Part shown: positions 9,364 through 58,302 of the stretch, in pieces
Layout of the letters: each line of letters opens with the position of its first letter
Position numbering within the stretch: the first letter of the stretch is position 1
Assembly (NCBI GenBank): GCA_016215405.1
Contig: JACRJQ010000005.1
Span: forward strand, 75,560-139,559
DNA: 64,000 nt
Direction of reading: 5' to 3'
DNA from: Candidatus Tayloriibacteriota bacterium
Lineage (GTDB): Bacteria > Patescibacteriota > Minisyncoccia > Phycocordibacterales > UBA6065
The notes under the pieces: generated by a model
Told to the model about the DNA's origin: nothing
What the model saw: only the letters and a program-made list of their open reading frames with translations
Databases searched by the model: none
Position numbers and translations under genes: made by a program

Positions 9364-10659
9364 ATGAAAATACGCACGTTCGCGTTTCTTTTGGTCGTCA
9401 CGGCGCTTTTGTCGGTCGCATTCGTCGCGAATGCCCAGACCGAAGCCGTCGCTGCCGAAGGATTCTGCCCAAGCCACGATGAATCGTCGGTCTCGGTAAC
9501 GCTCCAGCCTTTTCCTTCGAAGGTCGCGACGGGAGCATTCCTCCCTGTCGTCGCGCGCGTCACGAACCTGGAACCCTACCCGCTCTCGGGAGGATCCCTT
9601 CTCATGAGGCTCGTGAGCCTCGAGCCTGCGGACAGCGACTTCTCAGGCCTTTCGGGCGCCGTGCTCGCCCGATCGGTCGCTCTCGACGATATCTTCGTAG
9701 CTGCCGGCGAATCGAAAGAACTCTCGTTCATCTTCTCTCTCCCTTCGACCTTGCCGAAAGGCAAGTATCTCGTAGAAGCTGTCTATAGCGTGTCTGGCCT
9801 GAGCCCGGATGGCGTAGACGCGCTTCCGAGCGTCAACAAGCCGAATTCAGGTTTCGCGGCAATATCAATCGAGGGTATGGCTTCGGGCGGATTCGCGTTC
9901 GTCGATCCTCGGACTATCTCTGTCGCGGAGAGCGACGAGGGCGAGGTATCGGTCTCCGTAGACGTGGTCAACATGGCGAAAGCCGAAGCGTCGGTGCCTC
10001 TCCTCTGGAAGGCGTATCGAGGAAACGCTACGATCGAGGATTCGGCCGTGACAGGATCAGTAGAGACGATACGAGTCCCTGCCTCCGGCAGGACGAAGGC
10101 TTCCTATAGGCTCGATGACGGTTCATATTCATCGTATTCGATACTCGCCGCCGCAGCCTTCGGCGGGGTGTCATCCTATGCCGCGGCGAGAGCCGAGGAT
10201 GTGCGGGGAGGCGCCTTGGTGCGGCAGCTCGGCATAGCCACCTCGACCGAAGGATGGAAGGCGTTCGGCTGCGTGACGAACGCATTCGTCGACGACGAGG
10301 TCCAGAGGCTCGTGTCCCTCTCTGTCACAGACGGTTCGGGTATGGGGCTCGGCAGGAAAGAGTTCTCCGTGGCGGGAGAGCTTAACGACCTCGAGTTCTC
10401 GCTGCCGTTTACGATCGCAGGCACCGGGGACGTCATCGTCGCCGCGGAGATCATATCTGGCGGAGGGAGCAAGGAGTCTTTTCAAAAGGTGTTCAGATGC
10501 TCCGACCTCGGCACCTGCGCCGCGGTAGGCACAGGCAGGGCATCTGCCGCAGGAGAGCTCCTCTTCGCCGCCACCATGCTCATAGCCGGCCTCGGGGGCA
10601 TCATCGCCGTCTTGCTCAGGCCGAAAAAGCTCAAGCAGGCTCAAATATACACCTCTTAA
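9364..10659 (+). CDS. Secreted or surface hypothetical protein with signal peptide and C-terminal TM anchor
   Basis: The N-terminus MKIRTFAFLLVVTALLSVAFVANAQ is a signal peptide. The C-terminus has a hydrophobic helix followed by the basic tail RPKKLKQAQ. Confidence 0.6.
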   Translation: MKIRTFAFLLVVTALLSVAFVANAQTEAVAAEGFCPSHDESSVSVTLQPFPSKVATGAFLPVVARVTNLEPYPLSGGSLLMRLVSLEPADSDFSGLSGAVLARSVALDDIFVAAGESKELSFIFSLPSTLPKGKYLVEAVYSVSGLSPDGVDALPSVNKPNSGFAAISIEGMASGGFAFVDPRTISVAESDEGEVSVSVDVVNMAKAEASVPLLWKAYRGNATIEDSAVTGSVETIRVPASGRTKASYRLDDGSYSSYSILAAAAFGGVSSYAAARAEDVRGGALVRQLGIATSTEGWKAFGCVTNAFVDDEVQRLVSLSVTDGSGMGLGRKEFSVAGELNDLEFSLPFTIAGTGDVIVAAEIISGGGSKESFQKVFRCSDLGTCAAVGTGRASAAGELLFAATMLIAGLGGIIAVLLRPKKLKQAQIYTS

Positions 10660-10668
10660 TAAACGACC

Positions 10669-13341
10669 ATGAACAAGAAACTAATCATCGGGACATTCGC
10701 CGCGGCGCTCCTTCTGGCCGGAGCGTTCTATCAACACGTATCCGCTCAGTATTACGACGAGTACGAAGATTACAACGTCCCTTATACGCCCGTCGATCCG
10801 TGTCCAGGCAAGATCTGCGGATGGGTCGATGTTTCTAATGTGAGGGCTTTCGGCGTCGTTCACCCTACGCGAAACGGCATAAATTTCTATGGCACTCAGA
10901 CGACGAAGGAGCATCTCTGCCAGCTCGCGGGCTATGACCGCAGCAAGGGGGGCCAGGAGCAGAATAGGAAATGGAGCAAGTGTAACGACGAATACTACGT
11001 CACGTGGACCGGCAGCAACTGGAATATCTATAAATGCGACGCCAGGACGTATACGGTGAGCATATATTGCGAGAAGGACAAGCCGAATAACGCGCCGACG
11101 ATTTCATGGTCTCAAGCCCCGACCGCGGCGGCGTGCGACGCCTCGTACAAGGTAGAGGCGGCAGGCGCCGACGTAGACGGAAATCTTACGGCGGTGAGCG
11201 TCGATAAGAATGATTCCGCGTTCGCCTATGCCGGCGGCGGAAATGGATGGGAGGGCACGTCGGGCAATCCGACATCGGATAGCGGACCTAAGACCGTGAC
11301 CTTTACCGCCTGGTCGCAAGACTCGACAGGCGCACAGTCTGCAAAGATATCGCACACAGTATCGATAGGATCGTGCGTCGCTCCTAACAGGGAACCGACA
11401 GGCAGCCTTTCGGCGAGCTGCGCCGCGCTCTCTGGGAGCGCCTCTGACCCGGACGCTCCGGGCCAGTCGATAGGGGTCCATTTCTATGTTGACGGACCTG
11501 CTGGCAGCGGATCGTTCGCGGGGGCGACGAATACGAATGGAGGCTCGTATAGCATGGCTTTGCCTGAATCGCTCAAGACGGGGACCAACAGGACGGTATA
11601 CGCATACGCCATCGACACCGCCGGCGGCAATAATCCTCAGATCGGCCAGGCGACGGTGAATTGCTCTCCTGCTTCTGCTCCTGCTCCTACGGGATTCATC
11701 GCGGTCAGCCCATCGACCCTTCCTTCATCAGGAGGCAGCGTCACCGTGAGCTGGTCGGTCTCTGGCGCTTCGTCGTGCACGGCTTCTGGCGACTGGTCTG
11801 GCACCAAAGGATCGAGCGGGTCTGAGACGAAGCAGGTGAGCCGGTCGTCGCAATTCGATATAAGCTGCACGGGAGCCGGAGGCACATGGAGCGATAGCGG
11901 CCGAGTGACGGTCGCGGGGAGCCTCAACATCACCGATTTCTTCATCTCCCCGAATTCGGTCAAAGAGGGCGATGGCTTCACCATATACGGCGTCGCGCAA
12001 TGGAACGGGGTCGACTATATAAAGAGGCACAGAGCGTATTTCCAGGGCTCTCAGGGCGGCCAATGGACGTATGCGGCGGGGCCATATGCCGTGACCGTCG
12101 TCGCGAACGGATACTATACGGCCGAGAGGAATCCTTATTCCATGTATATGGGACCGGGATCATATAGCGTCGTGTATGAAGTGGAGGATAATGCCGGCAA
12201 TACGGATTCCGAGACGCGGTCGTTCACGTATCAAGGGGGCCAGCAGTGCGATACCAAGAGCCATACCTGCAGCGCTTCTTATACGGGATACGAATATCCT
12301 CAGTCGCAATCGACTCAGACGCTGACCGTGTATCAGTCGTGCGATATTTCCGAGCAGCAGCACGGCGCGCTCAATATCCCTAACGGGACGGCAACCCTTC
12401 AGAATAGGGCCTACAGCGACCAGTGCCCTCAGTGCTGGTATGACACGCACGCGTATCAGGGCACCACATGGCATTGTTCGAGGACGCTCTCAGGCTATGA
12501 CCATCCTCACTACAGGTCTACGTTCCCTGTGACCTATTACACTTCATGCAGCATAAGCGATGCTGAAAAGGCGGCTCTCGAAGCGCAGGGATATGTGTAT
12601 GGATACCGGCAGCGCACTCAGGAGACCAGTCCGGGCCAGTGGACCGACGTGCACTACATGAGCAACTGCGATTCGAACACCGCGAGATGCACCGATTCTA
12701 ACGCGACAAACTACAACCAGACAGGGTCGTGCCGTTACAACAATCAGACGAGATGCACCGATTCTAACGCTACGAACTACAATCAGATAGGCTCGTGCGA
12801 CTATTCGAACAACAACAATACTGACACGAACACGAACGGCGGGACGGGGAACAATCCTGGAGGAAACGGCAATAATGGCAATAACGGGAATCGTCCGATT
12901 CCGGGCTTTACCATAACGGCAGATAGCTCGAGGACGCCTGTTCAATTCGTCGGGGGGATCGGCGGCGGATCTGAGGCGAGGAGGATAGAGGTTAACCCGG
13001 TGAATGGCTTCAATGAGGATGTCACGGTGACCGTGGCGAGCATCCGCTCGAGGAGCGGGGGCCAGGCTTTGCCGGAAGGGGTCGTAGCGCTCTACTCGCT
13101 CGATAACAAGCCGTTCGCAGGCTCTATGTCTACGACGCAGAGATACAATCCGTCGGTCGGCGGGGGGAAGTATATCGGATCTGAAGGCCTCATCGGGTCG
13201 AGCTTCAAGCTCACGCTCTCGAAAGCCGTCTCGGAGCCGTATGAAGTCGTATTCAATGCGGTTTCGACATCGGGCAAGGCGGCGACGTATGTCCTCCTTA
13301 TCGAGCCGGATGTAAAGAATCCTTCTTTCAAAGAGCTTTAA
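10669..13341 (+). CDS. Large secreted low-complexity protein (Thr/Ser/Gly/Asn-rich) with an internal tandem repeat
   Basis: 890 aa with a signal peptide, many Cys pairs, N/T/G-rich tracts and a 66-nt tandem repeat at 12685..12816. Confidence 0.65.
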   Translation: MNKKLIIGTFAAALLLAGAFYQHVSAQYYDEYEDYNVPYTPVDPCPGKICGWVDVSNVRAFGVVHPTRNGINFYGTQTTKEHLCQLAGYDRSKGGQEQNRKWSKCNDEYYVTWTGSNWNIYKCDARTYTVSIYCEKDKPNNAPTISWSQAPTAAACDASYKVEAAGADVDGNLTAVSVDKNDSAFAYAGGGNGWEGTSGNPTSDSGPKTVTFTAWSQDSTGAQSAKISHTVSIGSCVAPNREPTGSLSASCAALSGSASDPDAPGQSIGVHFYVDGPAGSGSFAGATNTNGGSYSMALPESLKTGTNRTVYAYAIDTAGGNNPQIGQATVNCSPASAPAPTGFIAVSPSTLPSSGGSVTVSWSVSGASSCTASGDWSGTKGSSGSETKQVSRSSQFDISCTGAGGTWSDSGRVTVAGSLNITDFFISPNSVKEGDGFTIYGVAQWNGVDYIKRHRAYFQGSQGGQWTYAAGPYAVTVVANGYYTAERNPYSMYMGPGSYSVVYEVEDNAGNTDSETRSFTYQGGQQCDTKSHTCSASYTGYEYPQSQSTQTLTVYQSCDISEQQHGALNIPNGTATLQNRAYSDQCPQCWYDTHAYQGTTWHCSRTLSGYDHPHYRSTFPVTYYTSCSISDAEKAALEAQGYVYGYRQRTQETSPGQWTDVHYMSNCDSNTARCTDSNATNYNQTGSCRYNNQTRCTDSNATNYNQIGSCDYSNNNNTDTNTNGGTGNNPGGNGNNGNNGNRPIPGFTITADSSRTPVQFVGGIGGGSEARRIEVNPVNGFNEDVTVTVASIRSRSGGQALPEGVVALYSLDNKPFAGSMSTTQRYNPSVGGGKYIGSEGLIGSSFKLTLSKAVSEPYEVVFNAVSTSGKAATYVLLIEPDVKNPSFKEL
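12685..12816 (+). repeat. 66-nt tandem duplication (x2) inside the 890-aa gene, encoding RCTDSNATNYNQ[T/I]GSC
   Basis: agatgcaccgattctaacgc... recurs with period 66 nt. Confidence 0.8.
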
Positions 13342-18935: not shown

Positions 18936-19793
18936 TCAGATCCTCCGGAATTCTCCTAGCCTCTCCTCTATGAGGCCTTTTATCTCGAGGAGAGATATGA
19001 GAGAGCTTATCTTCGACGTCTCCATGTCGAGCCTGTCGAGGAGGTCGTCGCGAGAGAGAGGCGACGACAGGACTTCGATCACCTTTATCTCGTCGGCCGA
19101 GAGGTCCGAATAGTCCGTCTCGCTCCTCTCCGCGCCCGGCTTGAACCCGAGGGCTTCGGCGAGGTCGGCCGCGCACGTAAGGGGGGTCGCCCCGAGGCGT
19201 ATGAGCATGTGAGGCCCCGCGCTCTGGGAGGAGAATATGGAGCCAGGGACGGTAAAGACGTTCCTGTTGAATTCGGTCGCGTATTTCGACGTGATAAGGG
19301 TCCCCGACTTTATATCCGCTTCGACCACGAGCGTCGCGTGGGATATCCCCGCCATGATCCGGTTGCGCGCGGGAAAGGTCCAGGGCGCCGCCTTGACGCC
19401 CTCCTCGAACGGGGAAACGAGGCATCCTCCCGCCCTCACGATCTCTTTCGCGAGCTCGCGGTTGGCGGCCGGATATATAGACTCCTCGGACAGGCCCGAT
19501 CCCGGCACCGCGACCGTCTTGAGGCCGTATCTGAGGGCGGTGCGGTGGGCGATGGAATCGATCCCGAAAGCGAGCCCCGATACGATGACGACGGGTAGGC
19601 CTGAAAGCCCAGAAAGGAGCGATTCTACGGCTTCTTTGCCGTAGTCGCTGTGCCGCCTCGATCCCACCACCGTAAGGAGCATGTTCTCGGCCGAGGGGAA
19701 GCTTCCTATCATATAGAGCTTTTTCGGCGGGCTCGGCATCTCTCGCAGAAGCGGCGGGAAATCCTCTGGGGCGAGCGTCCTTATGGAATTCAT
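18936..19793 (-). CDS. dprA: DNA processing protein DprA (Smf)
   Basis: The Rossmann-like DprA core reads GSRRHSDYG, GLAFGIDSIAHRTAL and TLVVEADIKSGTLITSKYATEFNRNVFTVPG. Confidence 0.9.
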   Translation of the reverse strand: MNSIRTLAPEDFPPLLREMPSPPKKLYMIGSFPSAENMLLTVVGSRRHSDYGKEAVESLLSGLSGLPVVIVSGLAFGIDSIAHRTALRYGLKTVAVPGSGLSEESIYPAANRELAKEIVRAGGCLVSPFEEGVKAAPWTFPARNRIMAGISHATLVVEADIKSGTLITSKYATEFNRNVFTVPGSIFSSQSAGPHMLIRLGATPLTCAADLAEALGFKPGAERSETDYSDLSADEIKVIEVLSSPLSRDDLLDRLDMETSKISSLISLLEIKGLIEERLGEFRRI

Positions 19794-22941: not shown

Positions 22942-23002
22942 GGGACTTTGAGGAGTAGGGTGGGTCCGACGAATCCTCGTTCCTTTCAAACCCACGACCA
23001 CC

Positions 23003-23443
23003 ATGACCGACAAACGAAAACAGCCGCGGACGAAGGTCCGCTGGTTCCTCTGCGCTCTTACGAACGCTGCGCACCACAACCTCGGGCAGTCTCTCGGCTC
23101 TTCAGGGGTCTCTGACGAGACCCGCCTCAACGAAAAGATGAAGACCGCTGACGGAGAATACGATCTCTGGGACTGCGAAGGCATGACGTCTTCGGACGTC
23201 AAACGCCTCGCGATCGATTTCCTCAAGTCTGACCAGCCTGTGCGCATCTACCGCAAGCACGGAGACAATTTGCCCAAGCGGTGGGCGGATAGCGACGTGA
23301 CGGAGGCCGAACGAGGCTCTCTCGATCGCCAAAAGGAGAAAGGGCGGCCGAAAGAGCCCTCTCCTGAAAGTCCCGCCGCCCTCGCGAAAGCGCGCCTCGA
23401 CGAGCTCCTCGCCAAGCGAGGAGGGTCGAAAAAGGCTTCGTGA
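23003..23443 (+). CDS. Hypothetical protein (K/D/E-rich, non-repetitive)
   Basis: The composition is unlike the Arg/Ala/Gly-rich spurious ORFs typical of this GC content. No SD sequence or homology was recognised. Confidence 0.3.
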   Translation: MTDKRKQPRTKVRWFLCALTNAAHHNLGQSLGSSGVSDETRLNEKMKTADGEYDLWDCEGMTSSDVKRLAIDFLKSDQPVRIYRKHGDNLPKRWADSDVTEAERGSLDRQKEKGRPKEPSPESPAALAKARLDELLAKRGGSKKAS

Positions 23444-23680
23444 TGGATCCGTCCCGACCATCGCGACCTCGAGCTCTGCCGCATCTGCAGCGGAGCTTTT
23501 TTATGGTACAAGGCGGCGCTTGCAAACTTCGGCCGGAAGAGTAGAGTTCATGGTACCGGCCCTGGTCCACAAGAACTAGAGGGCCACAGAGGGCGGTCCG
23601 AACTGTTCGGTTCTGACCGCCCTCTCCCGATCTTTTGAATTCGCCCGTAAGGCTTCACGGGCGCTTAGCCATACTGCGGG

Positions 23681-23715
23681 CGGGAGCTTCAAGTTCCTGC
23701 CCGCTTTTCATATCG
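23681..23715 (+). terminator. GC hairpin plus T-run (paralog 1 of 2)
   Basis: gcgggcggga gcttcaagt tcctgcccgc tttt. It has the same stem as 23884..23917. Confidence 0.5.
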
Positions 23716-23883
23716 AGACCTCTTCTTGCAACGCGGAGTTCGCGGGTGTAGATTTAGGGAGACCTCGGGGCGGCGGCAGTAGGACCTCTCGGGCAAGAAG
23801 CCTTTCGGCATCTAGGGCCTGCTTGGAACCGAGCCTGCCGCTCCAAGTTCTTCGTTTTTTTGGGCGGTATTCATGTATGTGGG

Positions 23884-23917
23884 CGCGGGCGGGACCTCCT
23901 TGGTCCTGCCCGCCTTT
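23884..23917 (+). promoter_or_regulatory. GC hairpin plus T-run (paralog 2 of 2), 16 nt upstream of the pilin A1 start codon
   Basis: gcgggcgggacc tccttg gtcctgcccgc c tttt. The stem is identical to 23681..23708 with a different loop. Confidence 0.45.
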
Positions 23918-23932
23918 TGTTATACTGGGCGC

Positions 23933-24826
23933 ATGAAGCCTTTCCGCGGACGCTTCGGCGCGCAAAGCGGGTTCACCCTCATAGAGCTCCTCGTCGTGAT
24001 ATCGATAATATCGCTCCTTTCGTCTGTCGTCCTCTCGCAGCTTAACGCGGCGAGGGAGAAGGGGAGGCTCGGCAGCGCGAAGCAGTTCGCGGCCCAAGTC
24101 GACCGCGTGGCGGGAGATAGGGCTGTCGGTATCTGGGAGCTCGACGAGTGCTCCGGCGCGGCCGCGGCGGATAGGTCTGGAAACGGGAACAACGCTTCGC
24201 TTTCAGGCAGCCCTTCATGGCTTTCAGATACTCCCGACTCGACAGGCTGCTCTCTGAGCCTTAACGGCTCGACCCAAGGCGCTCTCGTGCCTCATGCGCC
24301 ATCCCTAGATCTCACAGGCGACATGACCTTTTCCATATGGTTCTATGCCAACGCGTCGAGCTGGCCCGCGAGCTGGCAGTCCCTCATGTCGAAAGGAAAC
24401 GCGACTCCGCGCAACTATTTTATGAACGTGATGAGCGGGGAGAGCGTCGTCGCGAACGATTGCTCCGACCAGACCGGGGGCTTTCAGTTCGGCTACCACG
24501 ACGGGACGACTTTCCGGCTCGTCGATATAAACGCGAGCTCTGTGCCGACCCAGCGGTGGGTGAACGCTGTCGGGGTGATATCCGCGAATGGGGCTAATCG
24601 CGACGTGAAGCTCTATATAGACGGACAGTTGAGGGCTTCGGCTTTGTGCTCTAACGCCCCTACGTCGAATACGGTGCCTCTCTCGATCGGCTCTATCCAG
24701 AATTCGATCGAGTTCTTCAACGGGAGAATAGATAAGGTCCGCCTATTCGAAAAATCGCTTACAGCGTCCGAAGTAGGCAGGATGTATGCCGCAGAGGCTC
24801 CGAAATATGAATTCGCATATGAATAG
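23933..24826 (+). CDS. Type IV pilin-like protein A1 (prepilin leader/methylation motif plus LamG-type Laminin_G_3-like domain)
   Basis: The class III leader ends ...G|FTLIELLVVISIISLLSSVVLSQLNAAREKGR. The mature part carries the WELDECSG....DRSGNGNNASL signature. Start moved to the internal Met; the track ORF begins at 23873. Confidence 0.8.
   Translation: MKPFRGRFGAQSGFTLIELLVVISIISLLSSVVLSQLNAAREKGRLGSAKQFAAQVDRVAGDRAVGIWELDECSGAAAADRSGNGNNASLSGSPSWLSDTPDSTGCSLSLNGSTQGALVPHAPSLDLTGDMTFSIWFYANASSWPASWQSLMSKGNATPRNYFMNVMSGESVVANDCSDQTGGFQFGYHDGTTFRLVDINASSVPTQRWVNAVGVISANGANRDVKLYIDGQLRASALCSNAPTSNTVPLSIGSIQNSIEFFNGRIDKVRLFEKSLTASEVGRMYAAEAPKYEFAYE
23971..24062 (+). repeat. 92-nt perfect direct repeat shared by pilin A1 and A2; the second copy is at 24834..24925
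   Basis: ttcaccctcatagagctcctcgtcgtgatatcgataatatcgctcctttcgtctgtcgtcctctcgcagcttaacgcggcgagggagaaggg is identical in both genes. Confidence 0.9.
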
Positions 24827-25637
24827 AAGAGCCTTCACCCTCATAGAGCTCCTCGTCGTGATATCGATAATATCGCTCCTTTCGTCTGTCGTCCTCTCGC
24901 AGCTTAACGCGGCGAGGGAGAAGGGAAGATTGGGCGCCGCCCGCCATTTTGCGGCCCAGGTCGAGCATACCGCGGGAGACCTCGTCGTGGGCATGTGGAG
25001 CTTCGACGAGTGCGCGGGGCTTTCCACCGCCGATAGGTCCGGGTTCGGGAACAACGGAGTCCTTCAGAATATGGCGGGCACGTCCGAGTGGTCGTCCGAT
25101 ACGCCGTCAGGTACGGGATGCTCGCTCCTCCTTGACGGCACGAACGACTACGTCTCCGTCCCGGATTCTGCGAGCCTCGATCTCAGCGGCGTGGCGACCT
25201 TGTCTATCTGGGTAAAATCGAGCGGCACGAACGCATATTCCGGATTCATGAATAAGACGAGCGCCCTTACCGGATATCAATTCGGCATCGGCGCTTCGAA
25301 TAGCATCCGCGGGGATCTCTATAACGGCACGACCTATATAAGCCCGATGCACACGACGAACGTCCTCGATGGAAAATGGCATCATATCGCGGTGGCGTAT
25401 GACGGCGTCGCCGCAAAGGTCTATGTCGACGGGATCGCGGGCGGCGCGGTCGCGGGATCAGGCTTCGTCACGGCTAACAACGCCTCTTTCGTCATAGGCA
25501 ACGACGTGTGCTGCGGAGGGAGATTCTTTAACGGCAGGATAGACGAGGCGAGGGTATTCGCCAAGGCTCTGACGGCGAAAGAGGTAGAAAGGATCTACGC
25601 GTCTGAGAAAAAGGGGTCCCAGGTCGCCGGCATCTGA
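24807..25637 (+). CDS. Type IV pilin-like protein A2 (prepilin N-terminus plus LamG-type domain)
   Basis: AFTLIELLVVISIISLLSSVVLSQLNAAREKGR and WSFDECAGLSTADRSGFGNNGVL. It overlaps the A1 stop. Confidence 0.8.
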   Translation: MNSHMNRRAFTLIELLVVISIISLLSSVVLSQLNAAREKGRLGAARHFAAQVEHTAGDLVVGMWSFDECAGLSTADRSGFGNNGVLQNMAGTSEWSSDTPSGTGCSLLLDGTNDYVSVPDSASLDLSGVATLSIWVKSSGTNAYSGFMNKTSALTGYQFGIGASNSIRGDLYNGTTYISPMHTTNVLDGKWHHIAVAYDGVAAKVYVDGIAGGAVAGSGFVTANNASFVIGNDVCCGGRFFNGRIDEARVFAKALTAKEVERIYASEKKGSQVAGI

Positions 25638-25649
25638 TATACTTTCCAT

Positions 25650-26684
25650 ATGTCACACGAAGTCCTCTATAGGAAATACAGGCCCCAGAACTTCAAGGAG
25701 GTGATCGGCCAGGATTCGGTCGTAAAGGCCCTCAAGGGCGCGATAGAGTCGGGAGCGGTCGCTCACGCCTATCTTTTCGCGGGCTCTCGCGGCATCGGCA
25801 AGACTTCGATCGCGCGAATATTCGCGAACGAGATAGGGACGAGCCCGAACGACGTCTATGAGATAGACGCGGCGTCGAACCGCGGCATCGACGATATCCG
25901 AGCGCTCCGCGACGCGGTCGCAACGCTTCCGTTCGAGTCCAAATTTAAAGTCTATATCATCGACGAAGTCCACATGCTCACGAAGGAGGCCTTTAACGCG
26001 CTCCTCAAGACCCTCGAAGAGCCGCCGAAGCATGTCGTATTCATCCTCGCTACGACCGAGGTCCATAAGCTCCCTGAGACCATCGTCTCGCGCTGCCAGG
26101 TGTTCGAGTTCAAGCGCCCGACCCTCGAGATACTCAAGGACGTCGTCACGACCATCGCCAAAAAGGAAGGCTTCTCGATCGAGCCTTCGGCGGCAGAGCT
26201 CGTAGCCCTCGTGGGCGATGGGTCGTTCCGCGATACTCACGGGACCCTCGAGCGCGTCATCGCCGGCATAAGCGGCAAGAAGATATCGAAAGAGGATGTC
26301 GAGGAAGCGACAGGCGCTCCGAAATCAGAGCTCGTCCGCGGATTCGTCCTCGCCCTCGCGAACAAGGATTCGAAGGCCGCGTTCGATTCTTTGGCCAAGC
26401 TGCGCGCGAAGTCGTTCGACCCGAAGCTCTTCCTCGAGCTATCCGTATCCCTCGTCCGTCTCGCCCTCTTCGTGAAGATGGGCGTATCGAGCGACCTTGT
26501 CGATCAGGCATCGGACGAAGACAAGGCGTTTTTCAAAGACGTCTCGGCGAAAGTCGATTCGAAGCTCCTGCGCTCTCTCCTCGGCGCATTCGACTATATC
26601 GGCGTCTCTCCGATCCGCGAACTGCCTCTCGAGCTCGCCGTGCTCGACATAGCAGGGGAGAAGGAGCAGAGGCTTTTCGCCTAG
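25650..26684 (+). CDS. dnaX: DNA polymerase III subunit gamma/tau (short form, no tau extension)
   Basis: YRPQNFKEVIGQ, Walker A GSRGIGKTSIA, DEVHMLTKEAFNALLKTLEEPP and the sensor TIVSRCQVFEF. Confidence 0.9.
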   Translation: MSHEVLYRKYRPQNFKEVIGQDSVVKALKGAIESGAVAHAYLFAGSRGIGKTSIARIFANEIGTSPNDVYEIDAASNRGIDDIRALRDAVATLPFESKFKVYIIDEVHMLTKEAFNALLKTLEEPPKHVVFILATTEVHKLPETIVSRCQVFEFKRPTLEILKDVVTTIAKKEGFSIEPSAAELVALVGDGSFRDTHGTLERVIAGISGKKISKEDVEEATGAPKSELVRGFVLALANKDSKAAFDSLAKLRAKSFDPKLFLELSVSLVRLALFVKMGVSSDLVDQASDEDKAFFKDVSAKVDSKLLRSLLGAFDYIGVSPIRELPLELAVLDIAGEKEQRLFA

Positions 26685-37778: not shown

Positions 37779-39680
37779 TCAGAGGCTCTCGGCGAACTCG
37801 AGGGCGGAGTCTCTCTCCGCGAGCGCCCGCTCTGCGGCTTTGGAGAGCGGCTCGGTGAGCTCGCGCGCATAGGATCCATCGGTAAACGCTTGTGACGAGG
37901 CCGCCGCGGCGCGCGCTTTTCGCACATGGAGGCGAATCTTCCGGCATATCTCGTCTATGGATTCTTCCCAAAATACCTTTTCCAGGAGCTTTGAGGCGCT
38001 ATCGGCCGCTATCGGATTTTCTCTCCCTTTTAAGACCGATCTGAGGGCGTCCGCGCTCGCCGAATTGATCCTTCCCGAGGCGAGGTCGCTCTGCCAGTCG
38101 TGTGCGTCGTCGTTAAGCTGGCGCGCGGCGATGTAGCTTTTGAAAAAAGCTTCGACCTCCCTGAACTTCCTGCTTCTCGGGGCATGGCCGAGCGTCATCA
38201 TGACGACGAGAGGGCCGAGCGCGTGGCCGAACGATTTGTCCGAGAGGATGCTTTCGTCGTAGGGTGGTATGCGGATAGGCGCTATATGCCCTTTCGCCGA
38301 TCGAGGAAGGAATGAGGACGCCGCTTCTCTCGCGTTTGCTTCGTCTATGGCCCTAAACGTCCTCCGCACATACGCCTTTCCCTCCTCGTTCGGAGAGAGC
38401 GACTCGATGATCGACAAAGACTCGCGTATGAGCACGTTAGAGAGGGGTAGGAGGCGCTCTCCTTTGGATTCGTCGATGATGTCGTCTTGGATCGAGTATC
38501 CGATCCAACCGAGCATGTTCGCGTGCCCGAGCTTCGCGAGCGTCCTGTCCTCGATCCTCTCTCCGTCCTTAAGGGCGCGAGAGAAGCGGAAAGGCAAGAG
38601 AGAGATGAGCTTCTCCATATCGCCTTTCGCGACCCTCGCTCGGCATTCTCTCGCTTGGCTTTCGAAGGGCTCTCCGAGGCCCTTGAAGAACCGGTCGCCT
38701 TCCGCTCTCGCCATGTCGAGCGCGGCTTTTTCCCGGCTGTCGTCCTCTCGCGTCGCCGTCTCTTTCTCTTCGGATAGGAGAGACAGGGCCTCGATGCAAA
38801 AAGCGGTCGTGATAGCTTCCGATCCCGCGTAGCTTCGTCGTCCGCCCTTTACCTCTTCGATATAGAGAGGGAAGGCTTTCCAAGGCGAAGAGAGGATATC
38901 TTTGGCCGCCTCATCTACTGCGCCATTTCGCCGGCCGAGTCTCGTAAGCGAGCTTATGCATATGGCTTCCTCCAGGGGGTTCACGGCTTTTCGGAGCGCC
39001 TCCGAGGCGGTATCCGCAAGCTTCTCTCTCTGCGCGCTCTCGCCTCGAAGCTCATAGAAGCGCGATATGAAATATATAAACGGATAGACGGTCTCATAGT
39101 AGAGAGAGTCGAATTTCGACCTCGCGACCGCAGAGTCGATATAAGAGGAGAGGGAGTCGAGGAACACGCCGTTAAGGCCCAGGGCGAAAGCGATGTTCGC
39201 GTTTACCGCTGTGTCGACGTCGTCCCAGCCCTTTTTCGCTTTGGCTAGCCACGTCCTGTAGGGCCCTCCTTCGTTCGATTCCGCCGAGATCAGGGCACGG
39301 ACGAAGCCTGCGAGAGGCCCGCCGCCGAGCTTTTCGCCGTAAAGCGCGAGCGACGCGATAGCGCAAGACGTGTCGTCGAGGTCGTCAGGGTAAGGGCGCG
39401 AGGCGGCTAACCTCGAGCCTCGTATCGTGTAATTCCACGTCCATTGGGGGCTTCTCTGCGACAGGATAAAGGAAGCAGCTTTCGCCTTTATCGCCGCGAC
39501 GCCTCTTATGCCTTTGGGGACGCGAGAGAGGCAAGAGAGTATGAGCGCGGCGGGGAAGACGGCCTGTCTCGACTCCGGTTGAGAGAATAAGGCGTCTTTC
39601 GAGCAGAGGCTCTCCCAGCTCCCGTTTCGCGCCTGGAGGGCGCGGAGGCGGGGTATTCCGTTTCGAATAGCCTCGTCCAT
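37779..39680 (-). CDS. Two-domain terpenoid-enzyme-like protein: N-terminal class II terpene-cyclase-like alpha/alpha-toroid domain (DxDD) fused to a C-terminal trans-isoprenyl diphosphate synthase-like domain (two Asp-rich motifs)
   Basis: A QW repeat QARNGSW at aa 17-23; DLDDT at aa 101-105 (compare SHC DVDDTA, CPS DIDDTA); a FARM-like SIQDDIIDE at aa 398-406 and a SARM-like RQLNDDAHD at aa 521-529, about 125 aa apart as in FPPS/GGPPS. Its ATG shares one nucleotide with the HK stop (TGATG). Confidence 0.55.
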   Translation of the reverse strand: MDEAIRNGIPRLRALQARNGSWESLCSKDALFSQPESRQAVFPAALILSCLSRVPKGIRGVAAIKAKAASFILSQRSPQWTWNYTIRGSRLAASRPYPDDLDDTSCAIASLALYGEKLGGGPLAGFVRALISAESNEGGPYRTWLAKAKKGWDDVDTAVNANIAFALGLNGVFLDSLSSYIDSAVARSKFDSLYYETVYPFIYFISRFYELRGESAQREKLADTASEALRKAVNPLEEAICISSLTRLGRRNGAVDEAAKDILSSPWKAFPLYIEEVKGGRRSYAGSEAITTAFCIEALSLLSEEKETATREDDSREKAALDMARAEGDRFFKGLGEPFESQARECRARVAKGDMEKLISLLPFRFSRALKDGERIEDRTLAKLGHANMLGWIGYSIQDDIIDESKGERLLPLSNVLIRESLSIIESLSPNEEGKAYVRRTFRAIDEANAREAASSFLPRSAKGHIAPIRIPPYDESILSDKSFGHALGPLVVMMTLGHAPRSRKFREVEAFFKSYIAARQLNDDAHDWQSDLASGRINSASADALRSVLKGRENPIAADSASKLLEKVFWEESIDEICRKIRLHVRKARAAAASSQAFTDGSYARELTEPLSKAAERALAERDSALEFAESL

Positions 39681-41209
39681 CAAACTTTTACGCTTAGAGG
39701 CCTCGCTCTTCTGCGCCTGTCAGCAGCTTTCTTGTCGAGAGGAATGGTGACGATGAATCTAGACCCTTCCTGAGGCGCGCTTATCACTTCTATCTTTCCG
39801 CCGAAATCCTTTTCGACGATATCCTTGGTCGTTGAGAGGCCGAGGCCGATCCCCGAATGCTCCGTTTTCGTGGTGAAGAAGGGGTCGAATATCCTGCAGC
39901 TCACCTCAGACTCGATGCCGCAGCCCTTGTCGGAGACCTCGAAGCGTATGCCGTCCGCAGACTCGAGGATGGATACGTCAACCGTTCTTTCGCCTTCCTT
40001 CGGCGAGCATATATATGAATCGATCGCATTCGATATGAGATTGACCGCGACTTGGAAGAACCGCACCGAGCTGCCATGGACGAGGATCGCCTCCTTTGAA
40101 TCTATGCGCACCGTTACGCCGGATTTCCTCGATTTGTGCAAAAGAAGGTCGGCCGCGTCCCGCGCCTCGTTCTCGAGAGAGAATATACCTACCTTGCTCT
40201 CGGAATTGAGCTGCTTGCGCACCGTCTGGACGAACGATTCGATCCTCTTCGAGGCCCTCACCGCCCTGTCTAAGGTCTCCTTGTATTCCGCGCCTTTATC
40301 GCCTGACTCGGCCGAGAGCTTTTCGACGGTGAGAGAGACGGTCGTGAGCGGATTGAGGAGGTCGTGGAAGATCCCTGACGAGAGCTTGCCGAATTCGACG
40401 AACCTATAGAGCTGGGAGACTTTCTCGAGCTGAGCCGCTTTGAGCTCGCGGGTCCTCTCTTCGACCTTCTCTTCGAGGGTGTCTCGCTCGGCCTTGAGGG
40501 CTCTTTCGGATTCGCGCGCTCGGCGCAGAGACCTTTCGAGATCCTTGTTGGAAAGCCAGGATACGGCCACTATCGCGAAGAATATGATGGAGTCTTCGAT
40601 AGCGTCTTTGGCCACCATAGGCTCCGACCTCCAAGATACGTCCGCTTGGATGATCCCCGCGGCTTGCAGATGCCCGAGGGTGATGAGGGTCGCCGCGATG
40701 AGGCCTGTTATGGCGAAACTCTGCTTCGTCCCCAAGAGTATGCTCGACATCACGATTATGGCAGCGTAGGAGAGGAGAGGAAGGGGGACTTCGATGCCCC
40801 ACGCGTATATGCCGTAGGTCGTGCCCATGAAATAGAGGCCTATGAAGAGGTAAGACGCGAGCCTCGTATGGCCGCGGCGAGAGAGGGCGAGGAGCGCCGC
40901 GAAGAGGATGATGAAAAAAGAGAATATCGTAGGGCGGAAGCCGTAGGTATCGAGGTCTGCGATCTGGGAGTATATGATCGAGGCCTCGAGCAGGATGACG
41001 GCTCCGAGCACGGTCGTGGCTATGACGTTGAATATGTGCTCGCGCCGATAGCTGTCTTCGTCGGATGACCGTGGGCGGATGCAGAGCGCGTAGATATAGC
41101 GAACACCCTGTCCGGCCGCCTGTCTCGCGCGTCTGTACGCTTTTAGGCTGGTCTCCAGGGTGTTCATGGCGCCTTTAATTATATAGCTAATTCCAAGGCG
41201 CGAATTCAC
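39680..41209 (-). CDS. Sensor histidine kinase (polytopic membrane N-terminus, HisKA plus HATPase_c)
   Basis: H-box GIFHDLLNPLT, N-box NLISNAID, and G-boxes DKGCGI and GIGLGLS. About 6 TM helices. Confidence 0.9.
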   Translation of the reverse strand: MNSRLGISYIIKGAMNTLETSLKAYRRARQAAGQGVRYIYALCIRPRSSDEDSYRREHIFNVIATTVLGAVILLEASIIYSQIADLDTYGFRPTIFSFFIILFAALLALSRRGHTRLASYLFIGLYFMGTTYGIYAWGIEVPLPLLSYAAIIVMSSILLGTKQSFAITGLIAATLITLGHLQAAGIIQADVSWRSEPMVAKDAIEDSIIFFAIVAVSWLSNKDLERSLRRARESERALKAERDTLEEKVEERTRELKAAQLEKVSQLYRFVEFGKLSSGIFHDLLNPLTTVSLTVEKLSAESGDKGAEYKETLDRAVRASKRIESFVQTVRKQLNSESKVGIFSLENEARDAADLLLHKSRKSGVTVRIDSKEAILVHGSSVRFFQVAVNLISNAIDSYICSPKEGERTVDVSILESADGIRFEVSDKGCGIESEVSCRIFDPFFTTKTEHSGIGLGLSTTKDIVEKDFGGKIEVISAPQEGSRFIVTIPLDKKAADRRRRARPLSVKV

Positions 41210-48797: not shown

Positions 48798-49490
48798 TTA
48801 GAGGTTCTTGAGTATCGTATCGATGATATTCTTCATGTCCTCGTAAGGGAGGGCGCCTTGGGTGATCGGTATCCTCTGGCTGTTCACGAAGAGTACGCTG
48901 TAGGGAGTGCCCTGGGCCCCTGCCGCCGTGACGTCGTCTTTATCCTTGAGTATCCTTGCCTTGTGCTTGCCGCTCGCGAGGCATTCGTTGAACCGAGCTT
49001 CGTCGATCCCAACTTCTTTTGCGAGCACCGGCAGCGTGGAGAGGTCGAGCCCGTCGTTCGAAGGCGTGGCGGCGAATATCTTGTCGAGGTACCTCCAGAA
49101 GGCGTCGTTCCCTCCGAGCTCGGCGGCGCACTCGGTCGCCTCGCCCTCCTTTACGGAGTTATTGTGGACCGGATAGTGCCTGAACGCCCATGCGAGCTGC
49201 GCCTTGCTTCCGTATTCCTTCATGAGGGCGCTTAGGGTCGAATGGAACTGCTTGCAGTAAGGGCATTCGATGTCGGAATACTCGACGAGGACTATGGCGG
49301 CGTTGGGGTTCCCGAGGACGTGGTCGTCTGGCCCTATCGGGTCGATCGAGGAGAGCGACGGCGCTTGGGCGGCAGGAGAGGGCTTTTGGATGGCTGTCCC
49401 TCGCCCTGACCAATAGAGCCCGAACGCTATGAGTACGCCCGCGATTATTATCGCGACGGGTATGGAGAGCGATTGTCGTTGTGGATTCAT
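48798..49490 (-). CDS. DsbA-family thiol:disulfide oxidoreductase (membrane-anchored)
   Basis: Thioredoxin CxxC motif CPYCKQFH and an N-terminal TM anchor. Confidence 0.8.
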   Translation of the reverse strand: MNPQRQSLSIPVAIIIAGVLIAFGLYWSGRGTAIQKPSPAAQAPSLSSIDPIGPDDHVLGNPNAAIVLVEYSDIECPYCKQFHSTLSALMKEYGSKAQLAWAFRHYPVHNNSVKEGEATECAAELGGNDAFWRYLDKIFAATPSNDGLDLSTLPVLAKEVGIDEARFNECLASGKHKARILKDKDDVTAAGAQGTPYSVLFVNSQRIPITQGALPYEDMKNIIDTILKNL

Positions 49491-50980: not shown

Positions 50981-51439
50981 TTATATCCTACCTGTGAGGT
51001 TCGAGTCTTCGATGAAGCCCCTCATCACGTCTTGTCGGGCGGCGACCCGTGCCGATTCGTCGGACAGGATGATAAGGAAGAGGCTCCCTGCGATGATGAC
51101 GGCCGTCATGAGCCACTTGATATAGATCGCCCACTGCGGCGTGTGCCAGATCCTGTGGAGGACGAATATCGAATAGAAGGATATGAAGAACGGCAGGACG
51201 AGGGAGATGACGAAGGCCATGCCGGTGAAGAGATAGGAGATCCCCGTGAGGGCGGTGCCACCGAGGAGCGTATGGAACAAGAACTTTATGGCGAGGAGGA
51301 GATTGTCTACGTAGTAGAGCGTGAAATATCCGAATATGACAAGGTAAAAGATGGTGCCTACCGAGCGGAGCTCGGGCGCGAAATAGAAATGAAGGACATG
51401 CCTCATATAAGACTCCTTTTCCTTGGGTTTTTCCGGCAT
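50981..51439 (-). CDS. Hypothetical polytopic membrane protein
   Basis: Four TM helices. No homology recognised. Confidence 0.4.
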   Translation of the reverse strand: MPEKPKEKESYMRHVLHFYFAPELRSVGTIFYLVIFGYFTLYYVDNLLLAIKFLFHTLLGGTALTGISYLFTGMAFVISLVLPFFISFYSIFVLHRIWHTPQWAIYIKWLMTAVIIAGSLFLIILSDESARVAARQDVMRGFIEDSNLTGRI

Positions 51440-51602
51440 GGGTTACATATTCCCACTTTTTAGACATTTGTCAACATATCGATTGACTCGCATGGAAGTC
51501 TGTGTATAATTAACTCCGTCGTTAGTTTCTCGGTGGTGGAAGCGTAAAGTCTAAGCCATAGGGAAGGTCGGACGATAGTTAAAAGAAATAGCAAGTCGCA
51601 CA

Positions 51603-51902
51603 ATGGCAAAGAAACTTTACGTGGGAAACCTCCCTTACAGCACGACTTCTGAGAGCCTCCGAGCAGGCTTTGAGAAGGCTGGCGCTGTCCTCAAGGCAGA
51701 CGTTCTCATGGACAAGATGACCGGCCGCTCGCGAGGCTTCGGCTTCGTAGAGATGGAAGACGCGGACGCTGACAAGGCGATCGCGATGTTCGACGGCAAG
51801 GAATTCGAAGGACGCTCCGTTAAGGTTAACGAAGCTCGCCCACTCGAAGACAGGCCTCGCCGCTCGTTCGGTGATCGAAACGACAACCGCCGAAGCTTCT
51901 AA
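51603..51902 (+). CDS. RRM-type RNA-binding protein
   Basis: RNP-2 KLYVGNL and RNP-1 RGFGFVEM. 99 aa. Confidence 0.85.
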   Translation: MAKKLYVGNLPYSTTSESLRAGFEKAGAVLKADVLMDKMTGRSRGFGFVEMEDADADKAIAMFDGKEFEGRSVKVNEARPLEDRPRRSFGDRNDNRRSF

Positions 51903-51921
51903 AGCTTCTCGATAGTCGGAC

Positions 51922-51947
51922 AAAAGCCGCCCTTACGGGCGGCTTTT
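51922..51947 (+). terminator. Rho-independent terminator after the RRM gene
   Basis: aaaagccgccc ttac gggcggctttt. Confidence 0.8.
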
Positions 51948-51978
51948 GCTTCGAATGCCTGCTGCTATAATGAGGAGC

Positions 51979-52803
51979 ATGCGTATAAGGAAGTCTCTCG
52001 ACAAAGACGGATTTACCCTCATAGAGCTCCTGGTCGTCATATCGATAATCGCGCTCCTCTCAAGCGTCGTGCTTTCTAGCCTCAATTCCTCCCGCGCGAA
52101 AGCCCGTCTTGCCGCCGGAAAGCAGTTCGCTTCCCAGGCTGACAGGGTAGCAGGGGAGCTCGCCATAGTACTCTTCGATTTCGACTCTAGTCCGGCCGAT
52201 AAATCGAGCGTGAGCGGGACTTTAACATACAGCGGCAACACCGCCTATTCCGCGGACACTCCTTGGGCTTCCGGCAGCTCGCTTTTCTTCGACGGGTCGG
52301 GCGATTACGCCTTAAGCGCGAGCAACCTGCCCTTATCCGGAGACGCCGAATTCTCTATGTGCGCGTGGATCAAATGGAACGGGGCATGGTCTTCCGACTA
52401 TCCGTCCTTTATGGGAAATAACAGCACAGGCGCGGCGAATCAAGGGCTCTCGTTCACCGTCCGTGACGGGCGGCCTGCGGTCGACTTTTGGGTGAACAGG
52501 TTCAGGGCGACGTCTGCTATAACCGCCGACGAGTGGCACCATGTCTGCGGCACCAAATCGCCCGGCCTCATCGGCTCCGCTACGAAGCTATACGTGGACG
52601 GCGTCCAAGTCGCAGGCGCGGTCGAAGGGTCGAACGTCTCGCCTTCGATCGTTCTCGCTCCCGCTGTGATCGGACGCCTCGACGGCAGCCGCTACTTCAA
52701 CGGATGGGTAGACAGCGCCCATTTCTTCGCAAAGACGCTCGTGGCGTCAGAGGTCCGCGACCTTTATGCCGCAGAGGCCTCCGCGTTCATAGCAGGGATA
52801 TAG
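51979..52803 (+). CDS. Type IV pilin-like protein B1 (prepilin N-terminus plus LamG-like domain)
   Basis: Leader MRIRKSLDKDG|FTLIELLVVISIIALLSSVVLSSL. Start set to the Met giving a short class III leader. Confidence 0.75.
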   Translation: MRIRKSLDKDGFTLIELLVVISIIALLSSVVLSSLNSSRAKARLAAGKQFASQADRVAGELAIVLFDFDSSPADKSSVSGTLTYSGNTAYSADTPWASGSSLFFDGSGDYALSASNLPLSGDAEFSMCAWIKWNGAWSSDYPSFMGNNSTGAANQGLSFTVRDGRPAVDFWVNRFRATSAITADEWHHVCGTKSPGLIGSATKLYVDGVQVAGAVEGSNVSPSIVLAPAVIGRLDGSRYFNGWVDSAHFFAKTLVASEVRDLYAAEASAFIAGI

Positions 52804-52807
52804 ATAT

Positions 52808-53647
52808 ATGGATAACGCACGGAGCATACGGCACAAAGGATTCACGCTCATCGAGCTCCTCGTCGTGATATCGATCATATCGCTCCTCTCGAGCGTCGTA
52901 TTATCGAGCCTTAATGCGGCGAGAGAGAAGGGCAGGAGAGGCGCGATACGGCAGTTCTCGTCCACTCTCGATCACGCGCTCGGCGCGTCATATGCGGGCG
53001 TCTGGGATTTCGACGAGTGCTCGGGCCCTACGACCTCGGACAGGTCGGGTTCTGGCACTAGCGGGACCCTTATAGGAGGCCTCGCCTGGTCGGTAGACAC
53101 CGTCTCTGGAACGGGCTGCTCGCTCCTTTTCGACGGCGTAGACGACTGGCTCAACAACGTGGCTCAGCCGGTGTTTCCGACGACTCCTAACGTATTCACC
53201 GTCGCGTTCGCGATAAAGCCGGACAATCAATACGGGCATGTCATAACGCCTCAGTCTAACGGCGTAGATCAGTGGATAGAATACGATCAGAGCAGCCAAA
53301 GGATCGGCATGAGGGTGGCGCAGAGCGCGGATACGAACGAGAGGCTCAGGCCCTCTTCGACGGGATCCGTTCCGTACGGGAGATGGTCTCATGTCGCGAT
53401 CTCCGTTAACGATAAAGCCATAAAGATATATATAAACGGCAAGCTCGATGCCGAATACACGGAGACTATCGATATCGGAGCCTGGGCGGGCCTGTGGGCG
53501 GTAGGCCAAAGAGGCATCAGTACCAACTGGTTCAAGGGCAATCTCGACCAGCTTCGGATATACGCGACAGTCCTCGGCGCGTCAGAGATAGGTAAGCTCT
53601 ATGCGGCAGCAGTCGGTCGGTCAGAGAGGCTATCCGCCATAGAATGA
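52808..53647 (+). CDS. Type IV pilin-like protein B2 (prepilin N-terminus plus LamG-type domain)
   Basis: KGFTLIELLVVISIISLLSSVVLSSLNAAREKGR and WDFDECSGPTTSDRSGSGTSGTL. Confidence 0.8.
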   Translation: MDNARSIRHKGFTLIELLVVISIISLLSSVVLSSLNAAREKGRRGAIRQFSSTLDHALGASYAGVWDFDECSGPTTSDRSGSGTSGTLIGGLAWSVDTVSGTGCSLLFDGVDDWLNNVAQPVFPTTPNVFTVAFAIKPDNQYGHVITPQSNGVDQWIEYDQSSQRIGMRVAQSADTNERLRPSSTGSVPYGRWSHVAISVNDKAIKIYINGKLDAEYTETIDIGAWAGLWAVGQRGISTNWFKGNLDQLRIYATVLGASEIGKLYAAAVGRSERLSAIE

Positions 53648-54375
53648 GACATATGAGGCACAAAGGATTCACGCTCATCGAGCTTCTCGTCGTGATATCG
53701 ATCATATCGCTCCTCTCGAGCGTCGTGCTATCGAGCCTTAATGCGGCGAGAGAAAACGCGCGTCTGACGGCCGCTCGACAGTTCGCCGGGATGGTCGAAC
53801 GCTCCGTGGGCGATCAAGCCGCCGCGATATTCGGTTTCGGAGAGGGGTCGGGAGCGACAACGAGAGACAAATCGGGCTCGAATATCATGACCTTGAGCTC
53901 CTCGGGATTATGGGGCGCTTCTGGATTGAGCGGTCAGGCGTACGCGCTATCGTTCAACGGCACGAGCGATTACGCGAGCTCTCAAGCGACGACTATGAAC
54001 GGCGCGAGCGAGACCGTGGGTATCTGGATAAGGACGACCGGCACGACGGGCGCGATGGCGGCGGGACAGGACTGGTGGAGGAGGCTTTTTACCGACAGAT
54101 GGAACATCATCGATTCTGCGAATAATTACGCTCAGATCTACTTTCCGGCGCCGATAAACGACGGTAAATGGCATTACACCGCGTACAGTCTCTCGGGAAA
54201 CTCCGTGAGGGTATATCTCGACGGCAAACAGGTCGGGTCGGCGACCTTGCCGGCGGCGATGGCTCCATATACGGGCAACTGGCAGATCGGCGGCCAGATG
54301 TGCGCGGGCACGTGTTCGAATTTCCTCCAGGCCTCTTATGGAGGGCTCCATGTCTATAACGCGAGCCTCTTTTAG
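53644..54375 (+). CDS. Type IV pilin-like protein B3 (prepilin N-terminus plus LamG-like domain)
   Basis: MRHMRHKGFTLIELLVVISIISLLSSVVLSSLNAAREN. The start overlaps the B2 stop (ATGA). Confidence 0.8.
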   Translation: MRHMRHKGFTLIELLVVISIISLLSSVVLSSLNAARENARLTAARQFAGMVERSVGDQAAAIFGFGEGSGATTRDKSGSNIMTLSSSGLWGASGLSGQAYALSFNGTSDYASSQATTMNGASETVGIWIRTTGTTGAMAAGQDWWRRLFTDRWNIIDSANNYAQIYFPAPINDGKWHYTAYSLSGNSVRVYLDGKQVGSATLPAAMAPYTGNWQIGGQMCAGTCSNFLQASYGGLHVYNASLF

Positions 54376-54386
54376 GCGGATGCATC

Positions 54387-54411
54387 GAAAAGCCGCCCTC
54401 GGGCGGCTTTT
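54387..54411. terminator. Bidirectional terminator between pilin B3 and convergent typA
   Basis: aaaagccgccc tcg ggcggctttt. Confidence 0.85.
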
Positions 54412-54415
54412 CGCA

Positions 54416-57946: not shown

Positions 57947-58302
57947 GGGTAAACCATACCCGAAGAGTCGGTATAAAGATAGTTTTAACGTATCGAGTCA
58001 CCGGTGGCAGTGGGGGATTTGAAGAACTATCCATGGAGCTCGCGCCCCATCAAAATATGGTATTCATTTTTAAACATTTATAAACATTGATAGATAATTT
58101 ACGTAAGTTAGCCACCTAGAAAAATGGGTGTTTTCTAGGTCCAGGACCACATACCAGTAACCGCTGAAGACACAATCCTCTCTGGCCCCAGAGGTCGGGT
58201 CAACAGAGAGGGGGTATCTGGTTCAAACTTCAAATAACGAAAACTCGCGATCGCTCTTTTCCACAGGGCCTATTCCTGGGCTAGAAACTATAATTAGACG
58301 TA

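Follow-up and report, generated by a model that had tools for sequence, protein, structure and literature searches.

The 64,000-nucleotide (nt) stretch of Candidatus Taylorbacteria DNA analysed here (the window) carries five genes in two arrays, A1 and A2 and, farther downstream, B1-B3, that encode tandem paralogues of what is probably a modular type IV pilin, in which a class III signal peptide and the alpha-1 helix are fused to a LamG/concanavalin-A-like beta-sandwich. A1 and A2 are identical over 92 nt at the beginning of the sequence encoding the mature protein, and this identity was probably left by a recent homologous recombination, short-tract and non-reciprocal, between the adjacent copies, that is, interparalogue gene conversion. 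Silent sites were homogenised within the block and nowhere else in the alignment, so that the two genes are not simply old duplicates, and the block and the body of A2 had conflicting closest relatives. The first point had been anticipated in outline when the letters of the window were first interpreted without database searches (the sequence-only reading), and gene conversion, which was proposed there, was found to be the best reading.

Extent and silent sites of the 92-nt block

The longest exact match between A1 and A2 was 92 nt long (23972-24063 and 24834-24925). Its length and second copy had been read correctly from the letters, while the first copy had been placed one base off, at 23971-24062. 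Apart from this match, the 64-kb window had a single exact repeat that reached 30 nt, a 41-nt match between B2 and B3 (52859-52899 and 53686-53726). The 92-nt block opened at the first base of the F+1 codon, right after the prepilin cleavage site, and closed within the codon for G31. When A1 and A2 were compared at the 862-nt offset, 13 of 60 nt were identical on the 5' side of the block, 92 of 92 inside it and 36 of 60 on the 3' side.

The divergence of the block was compared with that of the remainder, a check that the sequence-only reading had itself put forward. The silent-site divergence (pS) between A1 and A2 was 0.04 in codons 1-31 and 0.71, a saturated value, in the other 232 aligned codons. 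A recent duplication of the whole gene was ruled out, because the silent sites were saturated outside the block. Codons that specified the same amino acid in both genes outside the block were identical in 46 of 93 cases. Given the same amino acids and the codon usage of the window, the probability that the first 30 codons would be identical was about 5e-12, and when the silent-site states were permuted along the A1/A2 alignment, a run of 30 identical codons was reached in none of 200,000 permutations.

The mature N-terminal peptide, FTLIELLVVISI[IV][SA]LLSSVVL.., was almost invariant over 117 homologues, and amino acid identity in the block was therefore expected. The codons were a different matter. 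B2 shared 30 of the 31 block residues with A1 and only 20 of the codons. Three tandem LamG pilins on a contig from the Logan assemblies (L001), one of them among the closest relatives of A1, shared 30-31 of 31 residues, with 13-16 identical codons and a pS of 0.59-0.71, and two further control loci, L204 and L069, gave the same pattern of one peptide written in different codons. Since the paralogues and other genomes encode the same residues with different codons, constraint at the level of the protein does not explain the identity.

Mosaic ancestry, recurrence and competing explanations

An orthologue of A2, P0004, which has the same MNRRA leader, was found on an independent Logan contig, L205. 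In the body of the gene, A2 was 66.5% identical to P0004 in amino acids (63.5% in nucleotides) and 40% identical to A1 (50.7% in nucleotides). In the block, A2 was 98.9% identical to A1 and 71% identical to P0004 in nucleotides, the latter differing from A2 at 27 of 93 positions. Paralogues that are closer than orthologues inside a sharply bounded tract, with the reverse outside it, are the classical signature of interparalogue gene conversion. The best non-self matches were at 46% for A1 and 68% for A2, and no close relative was found. The contig that carries P0004 (L205 1-3084, Logan SRR23285957) contained four tandem pilins: a LamG pilin with its N-terminus cut at the contig end, a 153-amino acid (aa) classical pilin, the LamG pilin P0068 and P0004 itself. 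P0068, which precedes P0004, was not orthologous to A1 (34.5% aa identity in the body).

Conversion would have been confined to the sole segment in which the paralogues are still similar enough to pair, the codons of the invariant N-terminal part of alpha-1 (alpha-1N). Purifying selection on the helix may keep the block codons similar enough for pairing, the 5' border lies where the unrelated leaders (MKPFRGRFGAQSG in A1, MNRRA in A2) adjoin and the 3' border falls after codon 31, and homogenisation would in turn make further exchange more probable. The conversion is most likely to have come about incidentally, because the copies are conserved in sequence and adjacent, rather than as a selected mechanism.

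The second array had been said to repeat the theme, which was true of B2 and B3 and did not extend to B1. The B2/B3 tract, with 94 of 97 nt identical, began 11 nt inside the leader and extended as far as mature codon 29, and the pS was 0.20 in the block and 0.75 in the rest, while the block of B1 was not homogenised (pS 0.64-0.67 against B2 and B3). The B2/B3 tract is an older event of the A1/A2 kind that has gained three substitutions since. The description of conversion as "ongoing" went too far, for one assembly cannot show it; what the window contains is a very recent tract in A1/A2 and an older one in B2/B3.

The comparison set comprised about 200 loci from species-representative genomes and metagenomes, in which every neighbouring pair of pilin genes on the same strand was compared, giving 107 pairs. 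The scan of genome contigs was dominated by generic GFTLIELLV pilins and yielded at least about four full-length LamG relatives, with no Taylorbacteria among the matches listed. For the metagenome contigs, a degenerate DNA pattern limited to CTN/TCN codons retrieved no loci, and a broader pattern retrieved 120. Among the 107 pairs, no other pair with diverged bodies had an exact 5' run as long as that of A1/A2. Second was a LamG pair in L172, with a 68-nt run (pS 0.13 in the block, 0.52 in the rest), followed by L121, L140, L033, L136, L165 and L169 with 5' runs of 41-60 nt on diverged bodies; L033 is the closed Planctomycetaceae chromosome CP051247. The homogenised 5' tract in L121, L172, L140 and L033 reached upstream through the leader and the ribosome-binding region. 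Two fully identical tandem copies were present in L121 (4066-5433), where the sharing with a third copy was limited to the upstream region plus 60 nt at the start of the mature coding sequence.

The median fraction of shared block codons was 0.64 within a locus and 0.36 between loci matched for G+C content at third codon positions (GC3), and 18 of 75 within-locus pairs lay above the 99th percentile of the between-locus distribution. The close relatives L001 and L204 had no homogenised block. Tandem pilin arrays in general therefore undergo episodic homogenisation of their 5' ends, although not without exception, and A1/A2 is the freshest example. LamG pilin genes also occurred as singletons (P0038, P0014 and P0106 in L082, L083 and L084) among the housekeeping genes of related genomes, where their neighbours were RNase HII and L32, a peptidase M23 gene, and pyruvate kinase, so the family is dispersed as well as tandem; these singletons were of no use for the comparison of tandem pairs.

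An alternative that was considered unlikely, but that has some evidence in its favour, is array turnover by crossing-over, in which one gene was recently put into its slot and the block is the crossover joint rather than a copied patch. That gene could have arrived, for example, by unequal exchange, through an excised circle that integrated, or because transformed DNA replaced an earlier copy. In L205, P0068 and the 153-aa classical pilin precede the A2 orthologue, and the genes in this position are not orthologous to A1, which indicates that array slots turn over rapidly and that the upstream slot does so much faster than A2. The identical copies and the partial third copy in L121 likewise show ongoing duplication in such arrays. 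However, the leader and the body of A2 are both ancestral, the tract reaches no flank that a recent insertion would also have brought, and a replacement would require a second crossover, for which the homology past the block does not suffice. A 92-bp patch is the more economical reading.

Several considerations weigh against gene conversion as the explanation, 1) the incongruence test was anchored by one orthologue only, P0004, at 66% identity, 2) an orthologue of A1 was searched for and none was found, so that either gene may have been the donor, 3) in one assembly, a short conversion tract is indistinguishable from a mosaic generated by crossing-over, 4) the evidence is assembled sequence rather than read-level data, and conclusions as to population variants and the correctness of the assembly rest on it, 5) the within-locus excess of shared codons could partly reflect shared local codon usage and 6) RecA and other recombination genes were considered within the window only.

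The possibility that the identity is an assembly artefact, either near-alike blocks made identical by graph simplification or strain alleles misjoined in tandem, was judged very improbable. The source is a metagenome-assembled genome (MAG), and a 92-nt repeat exceeds the k-mer length of some assemblers. Graph simplification, however, merges only sequences that are already near-identical, so the contrast with the saturated silent sites would persist. Nor can a collapse put two copies into different flanking contexts, and k-mers common to the two genes could not have produced the unique junction at which the A1 stop and the A2 start overlap (24819-24826). The LamG-LamG tandem ending in an A2 orthologue was also present in the independent Logan assembly, which argues against a chimeric join, and comparable tracts occurred in unrelated assemblies, including the closed chromosome CP051247.

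Programmed pilin variation, by cassettes as in Neisseria pilE/pilS or by inversion as in Moraxella Piv, would make the block a functional recombination site, and a conserved 5' block followed by a variable 3' body does superficially resemble the known pilin variation loci. This explanation was given almost no weight. Each of the five copies is a complete gene that has its own leader, with no silent 5'-truncated cassette among them, and it is the conserved part that is homogenised, whereas pilS-to-pilE conversion does the reverse. On the minus strand, none of the 14-mers of the block had a match, inverted exact repeats of at least 25 nt were absent from the window, and there was no G-quadruplex (G4) motif in 23000-26000 or 51000-54600. 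The neighbouring genes (Dus, a 146-aa open reading frame (ORF), DnaX, TruB and TypA) included no recombinase, and close relatives (L001 and L204) are without the homogenised block. That selection keeps the two blocks identical as nucleotide sequence, be it for the sake of an mRNA structure, a regulatory RNA target or some requirement for particular codons, is scarcely tenable, as nothing besides the identity itself speaks for it, B1-B3 and homologues elsewhere write the same peptide in many different codons, the A2 orthologue is off at the 27 positions noted above, and the free choice of codons in paralogues and orthologues excludes a function at the nucleotide level.

The sequence-only reading had seen in the repeats a substrate for shuffling pilin domains. 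This was not borne out, since no inverted copy, adjoining recombinase, silent cassette or G4 motif was found; what direct repeats allow is deletion or duplication of the 862-bp unit. As the 92-bp repeats flank the A1 body, RecA-type recombination could delete or duplicate this unit, and the deletion product would join the A1 leader and promoter to the A2 body, a fusion that would be in frame because both blocks begin at mature codon 1.

It is also conceivable, though rather doubtful, that the alpha-1N block serves as a portable homology anchor that lets LamG heads be excised, duplicated, deleted, or swapped between slots or with DNA taken up from relatives. The fast turnover upstream of the A2 orthologue and the recurrent 5' tracts in many pilin arrays of the Candidate Phyla Radiation (CPR, or Patescibacteria) are compatible with such an anchor and do not show it. 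If it were true, host-dependent CPR cells would gain a rapidly re-assortable adhesin repertoire without a dedicated recombinase.

The A1/A2 tract provides a clean, well-controlled case of short-tract gene conversion in a CPR genome, in which the helix-coding part recombines and the ligand-binding heads diverge past silent-site saturation. For pilin phylogenies and orthology calls in the CPR, the initial ~100 nt of the mature coding sequence should be left out. Arrays could expand or contract at such blocks, and assemblies could break there as well.

Protein architecture and genomic setting

The description of A1 and A2 as tandem genes that combine a prepilin leader with a LamG domain was confirmed by Pfam. 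N_methyl (PF07963) and Laminin_G_3 (PF13385) were above the gathering cut-offs in all five ORFs, the latter with E-values of 7.9e-14 to 7.6e-29 (52-101 bits; cut-off 27.6). The N_methyl motif of type IV pilins consists of a short basic leader, G or A at -1, F at +1, E at +5 and about 20 hydrophobic residues; prepilin peptidase cleaves and methylates the protein, which is assembled by machinery of the PilB/PilC type. The cleavage site was read as lying between G and FTLIELLVV... in A1 and B1-B3 and between A and FTLIELLVV... in A2. Alanine in place of the canonical glycine at -1 is unusual among type IV prepilins; it was present in A2 (leader at 24819-24833) and in 42 of 117 homologues (P0002-P0120).

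The AlphaFold (AF2) model of A2, obtained with a 61-sequence alignment, had a mean predicted local distance difference test score (pLDDT) of 91 and a predicted template modelling score (pTM) of 0.83. It consisted of a single long helix (residues 8-53), a beta-sandwich (residues 56-247) and then a C-terminal helix, and the block would therefore encode the N-terminal two thirds of alpha-1. In a Foldseek search of the PDB, the top matches to the model were 5hon_A, domain 4 of the arabinanase AbnA (E 4.6e-12, template modelling (TM) score 0.78 on the target), and the Hc domains of tetanus and botulinum toxins, that is, lectin-like jelly rolls and not pilins. In the model, alpha-1 (to residue 53) ran straight into the LamG sandwich (from residue 56) and a separate pilin head was absent, which suggests that the LamG domain stands in for the usual pilin head instead of being added to one. 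The LamG head is presumably ligand-binding, probably as a putative glycan-binding module, on the pilus of the Candidatus Taylorbacteria cell, where it might contact glycans or a host.

The LamG pilins also had a nearly invariant pair of cysteines, C65 and C101 (A2 numbering). A gene for a DsbA-like thioredoxin lay at 48798-49490 on the minus strand, 2.5 kb upstream of the B array, and together with the cysteine pair it makes a disulfide plausible.

Table 1. Pilin genes, shared tracts and the B-array terminator, with positions counted from the first base of the window
Feature	Coordinates	Strand	Evidence and remarks
A1 prepilin-LamG gene, 297 aa	23933..24826	+	Leader MKPFRGRFGAQSG, then FTLIELL; Pfam N_methyl 4.1e-07, Laminin_G_3 2.7e-22
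A2 prepilin-LamG gene, 272 aa	24819..25637 (NCBI start 24819)	+	Leader MNRRA, then FTLIELL; Pfam N_methyl and Laminin_G_3 7.6e-29
92-nt block, copy 1, in A1	23972..24063	+	Exact-match search; mature-pilin codons F1 to G31
92-nt block, copy 2, in A2	24834..24925	+	Exact-match search; 862 nt 3' of copy 1, same codon register
B1 prepilin-LamG gene	51979..52803 (start uncertain: 51970 or 51979)	+	Pfam
B2 prepilin-LamG gene, 279 aa	52808..53647	+	Pfam
B3 prepilin-LamG gene, 243 aa	53644..54375	+	Pfam; start overlaps B2 stop (ATGA)
Older homogenised tract, B2 copy	52830..52926	+	94/97 nt vs B3; contains 41-nt exact run 52859-52899
Older homogenised tract, B3 copy	53657..53753	+	94/97 nt vs B2
Terminator-like hairpin 3' of B3	54386-54413		Terminator scan

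The locus is summarised in Table 1. A1 was 100% identical to MBI5134068.1 of a Candidatus Taylorbacteria MAG, and A2, read from 24819, was identical to MBI5134069.1, whose accession adjoins that of A1; both are annotated as prepilin-type proteins, on a contig of 144,751 bp. In-frame alternative starts for A2 were present at 24807 and 24786. The start of A2 overlaps the stop codon of A1 (24824-24826) by 8 nt, and there is therefore no intergenic DNA between the two genes. Dus and the 146-aa ORF lay upstream of A1 and DnaX downstream of A2, while the B array was flanked by TruB and TypA/BipA. No recombinase was found among the genes adjoining the arrays, and no pilus machinery gene among the ORFs of the window that were scanned. 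The sequence-only reading had also connected the pilins with DNA uptake through dprA. This gene was indeed present (18936-19793, minus strand), but it adjoins topA among housekeeping genes, 4 kb from A1/A2, and with no pilus machinery gene in the window the link was not sustained.

A sigma-70 scan gave no promoter near A1 or A2; a sequence picked out by eye just 5' of A1, TTGGTC-16-TATACT, was below threshold and no claim is made for it. The only Rfam matches across the window were four tRNAs, with nothing credible 5' of A1. The 366-nt non-coding stretch before A1 (23570-23935, plus strand) was strongly folded, with a minimum free energy of -173 kcal/mol (z = -5.3 against shuffled sequence) and three strong hairpins that matched no Rfam family. 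Two near-identical terminator-like hairpins (GCGGGCGGGA...TCCTGCCCGC followed by a T-run) were located at 23676-23704 and 23885-23913, the second finishing 20 nt 5' of the A1 start codon.

Elsewhere in the window, an ORF of more than 1,902 codons (58294-63999, plus strand) continued past the window end and had no Pfam match. Three large ORFs (431, 890 and 634 aa) at 9364-13341 (plus strand) and 37779-39683 (minus strand) had no significant Pfam family, the sole signal in the 890-aa ORF being a sub-threshold Ig-like match.

Comparison with known systems

A literature search on LamG or concanavalin-A-like pilins of the CPR/Patescibacteria found no paper that treats them specifically. A modular pilin of the kind described by Raynaud and colleagues has a complete pilin module (alpha-1 and a beta-sheet head), a short linker and an extra domain. 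More than 1,200 modular pilins were listed by Raynaud et al. 2021, including a lectin-type architecture with PF13385 (IPR012902+PF13385); PF13385 pilins are among the 15 most frequent modular architectures, and several representatives of these architectures come from CPR phyla (PMC8179133). PilC of Streptococcus sanguinis is a solved modular pilin with a glycan-binding, concanavalin-A-like lectin module (PMC9934059). Type IV pili are described as important for host interaction in cultivated Patescibacteria (PMC11623550). Like PilC and the PF13385 modular pilins, the window proteins carry a concanavalin-A-like/LamG domain after a class III signal peptide and alpha-1. Unlike in PilC, neither a separate alpha-beta pilin head nor an Ig-like spacer comes between alpha-1 and the LamG domain in the model. 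The window proteins are also about half the size of PilC, and they are encoded as five paralogues in two arrays among housekeeping genes, outside any pil locus.

The direct repeats that flank pilA of Francisella tularensis are reportedly the 5' ends of pilin genes. These repeats, at the pilA-pilE pair, mediate the loss of pilA (Forslund et al. 2006, as cited in PMC2941502). The A1 body is similarly flanked by direct repeats (92 nt, 862 nt apart) that are long enough for homologous recombination. In Francisella, however, the deletion was observed and had a virulence phenotype, whereas here it is a structural possibility only.

In Neisseria pilE/pilS, silent, promoterless, 5'-truncated cassettes donate variable sequence to one expression locus, and a G4 structure initiates the exchange. 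The window resembles this system in that non-reciprocal homologous recombination would have taken place between pilin paralogues, but all of the copies here are full length, the constant region is the one converted and there is no G4 motif. In the Moraxella Piv-type switch, inverted repeats bound the variable part and a site-specific recombinase adjoins; the repeats in the window are direct, with no inverted copy and no adjoining recombinase.

Concerted evolution by short-tract gene conversion between bacterial paralogues, tandem or dispersed, is textbook knowledge, the duplicated tuf genes being an example. The concept has been reviewed (PMC3924837, PMC2720389). A1 and A2 conform to it in having a sharp-edged homogeneous stretch in which paralogues are more alike than orthologues, and they differ from the usual case in that homogenisation is limited to a 92-nt sub-segment and silent sites are saturated over the rest. 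The A1/A2 tract is real, and it is an ordinary way for duplicated genes to evolve rather than a new switching system, mechanism or protein class.

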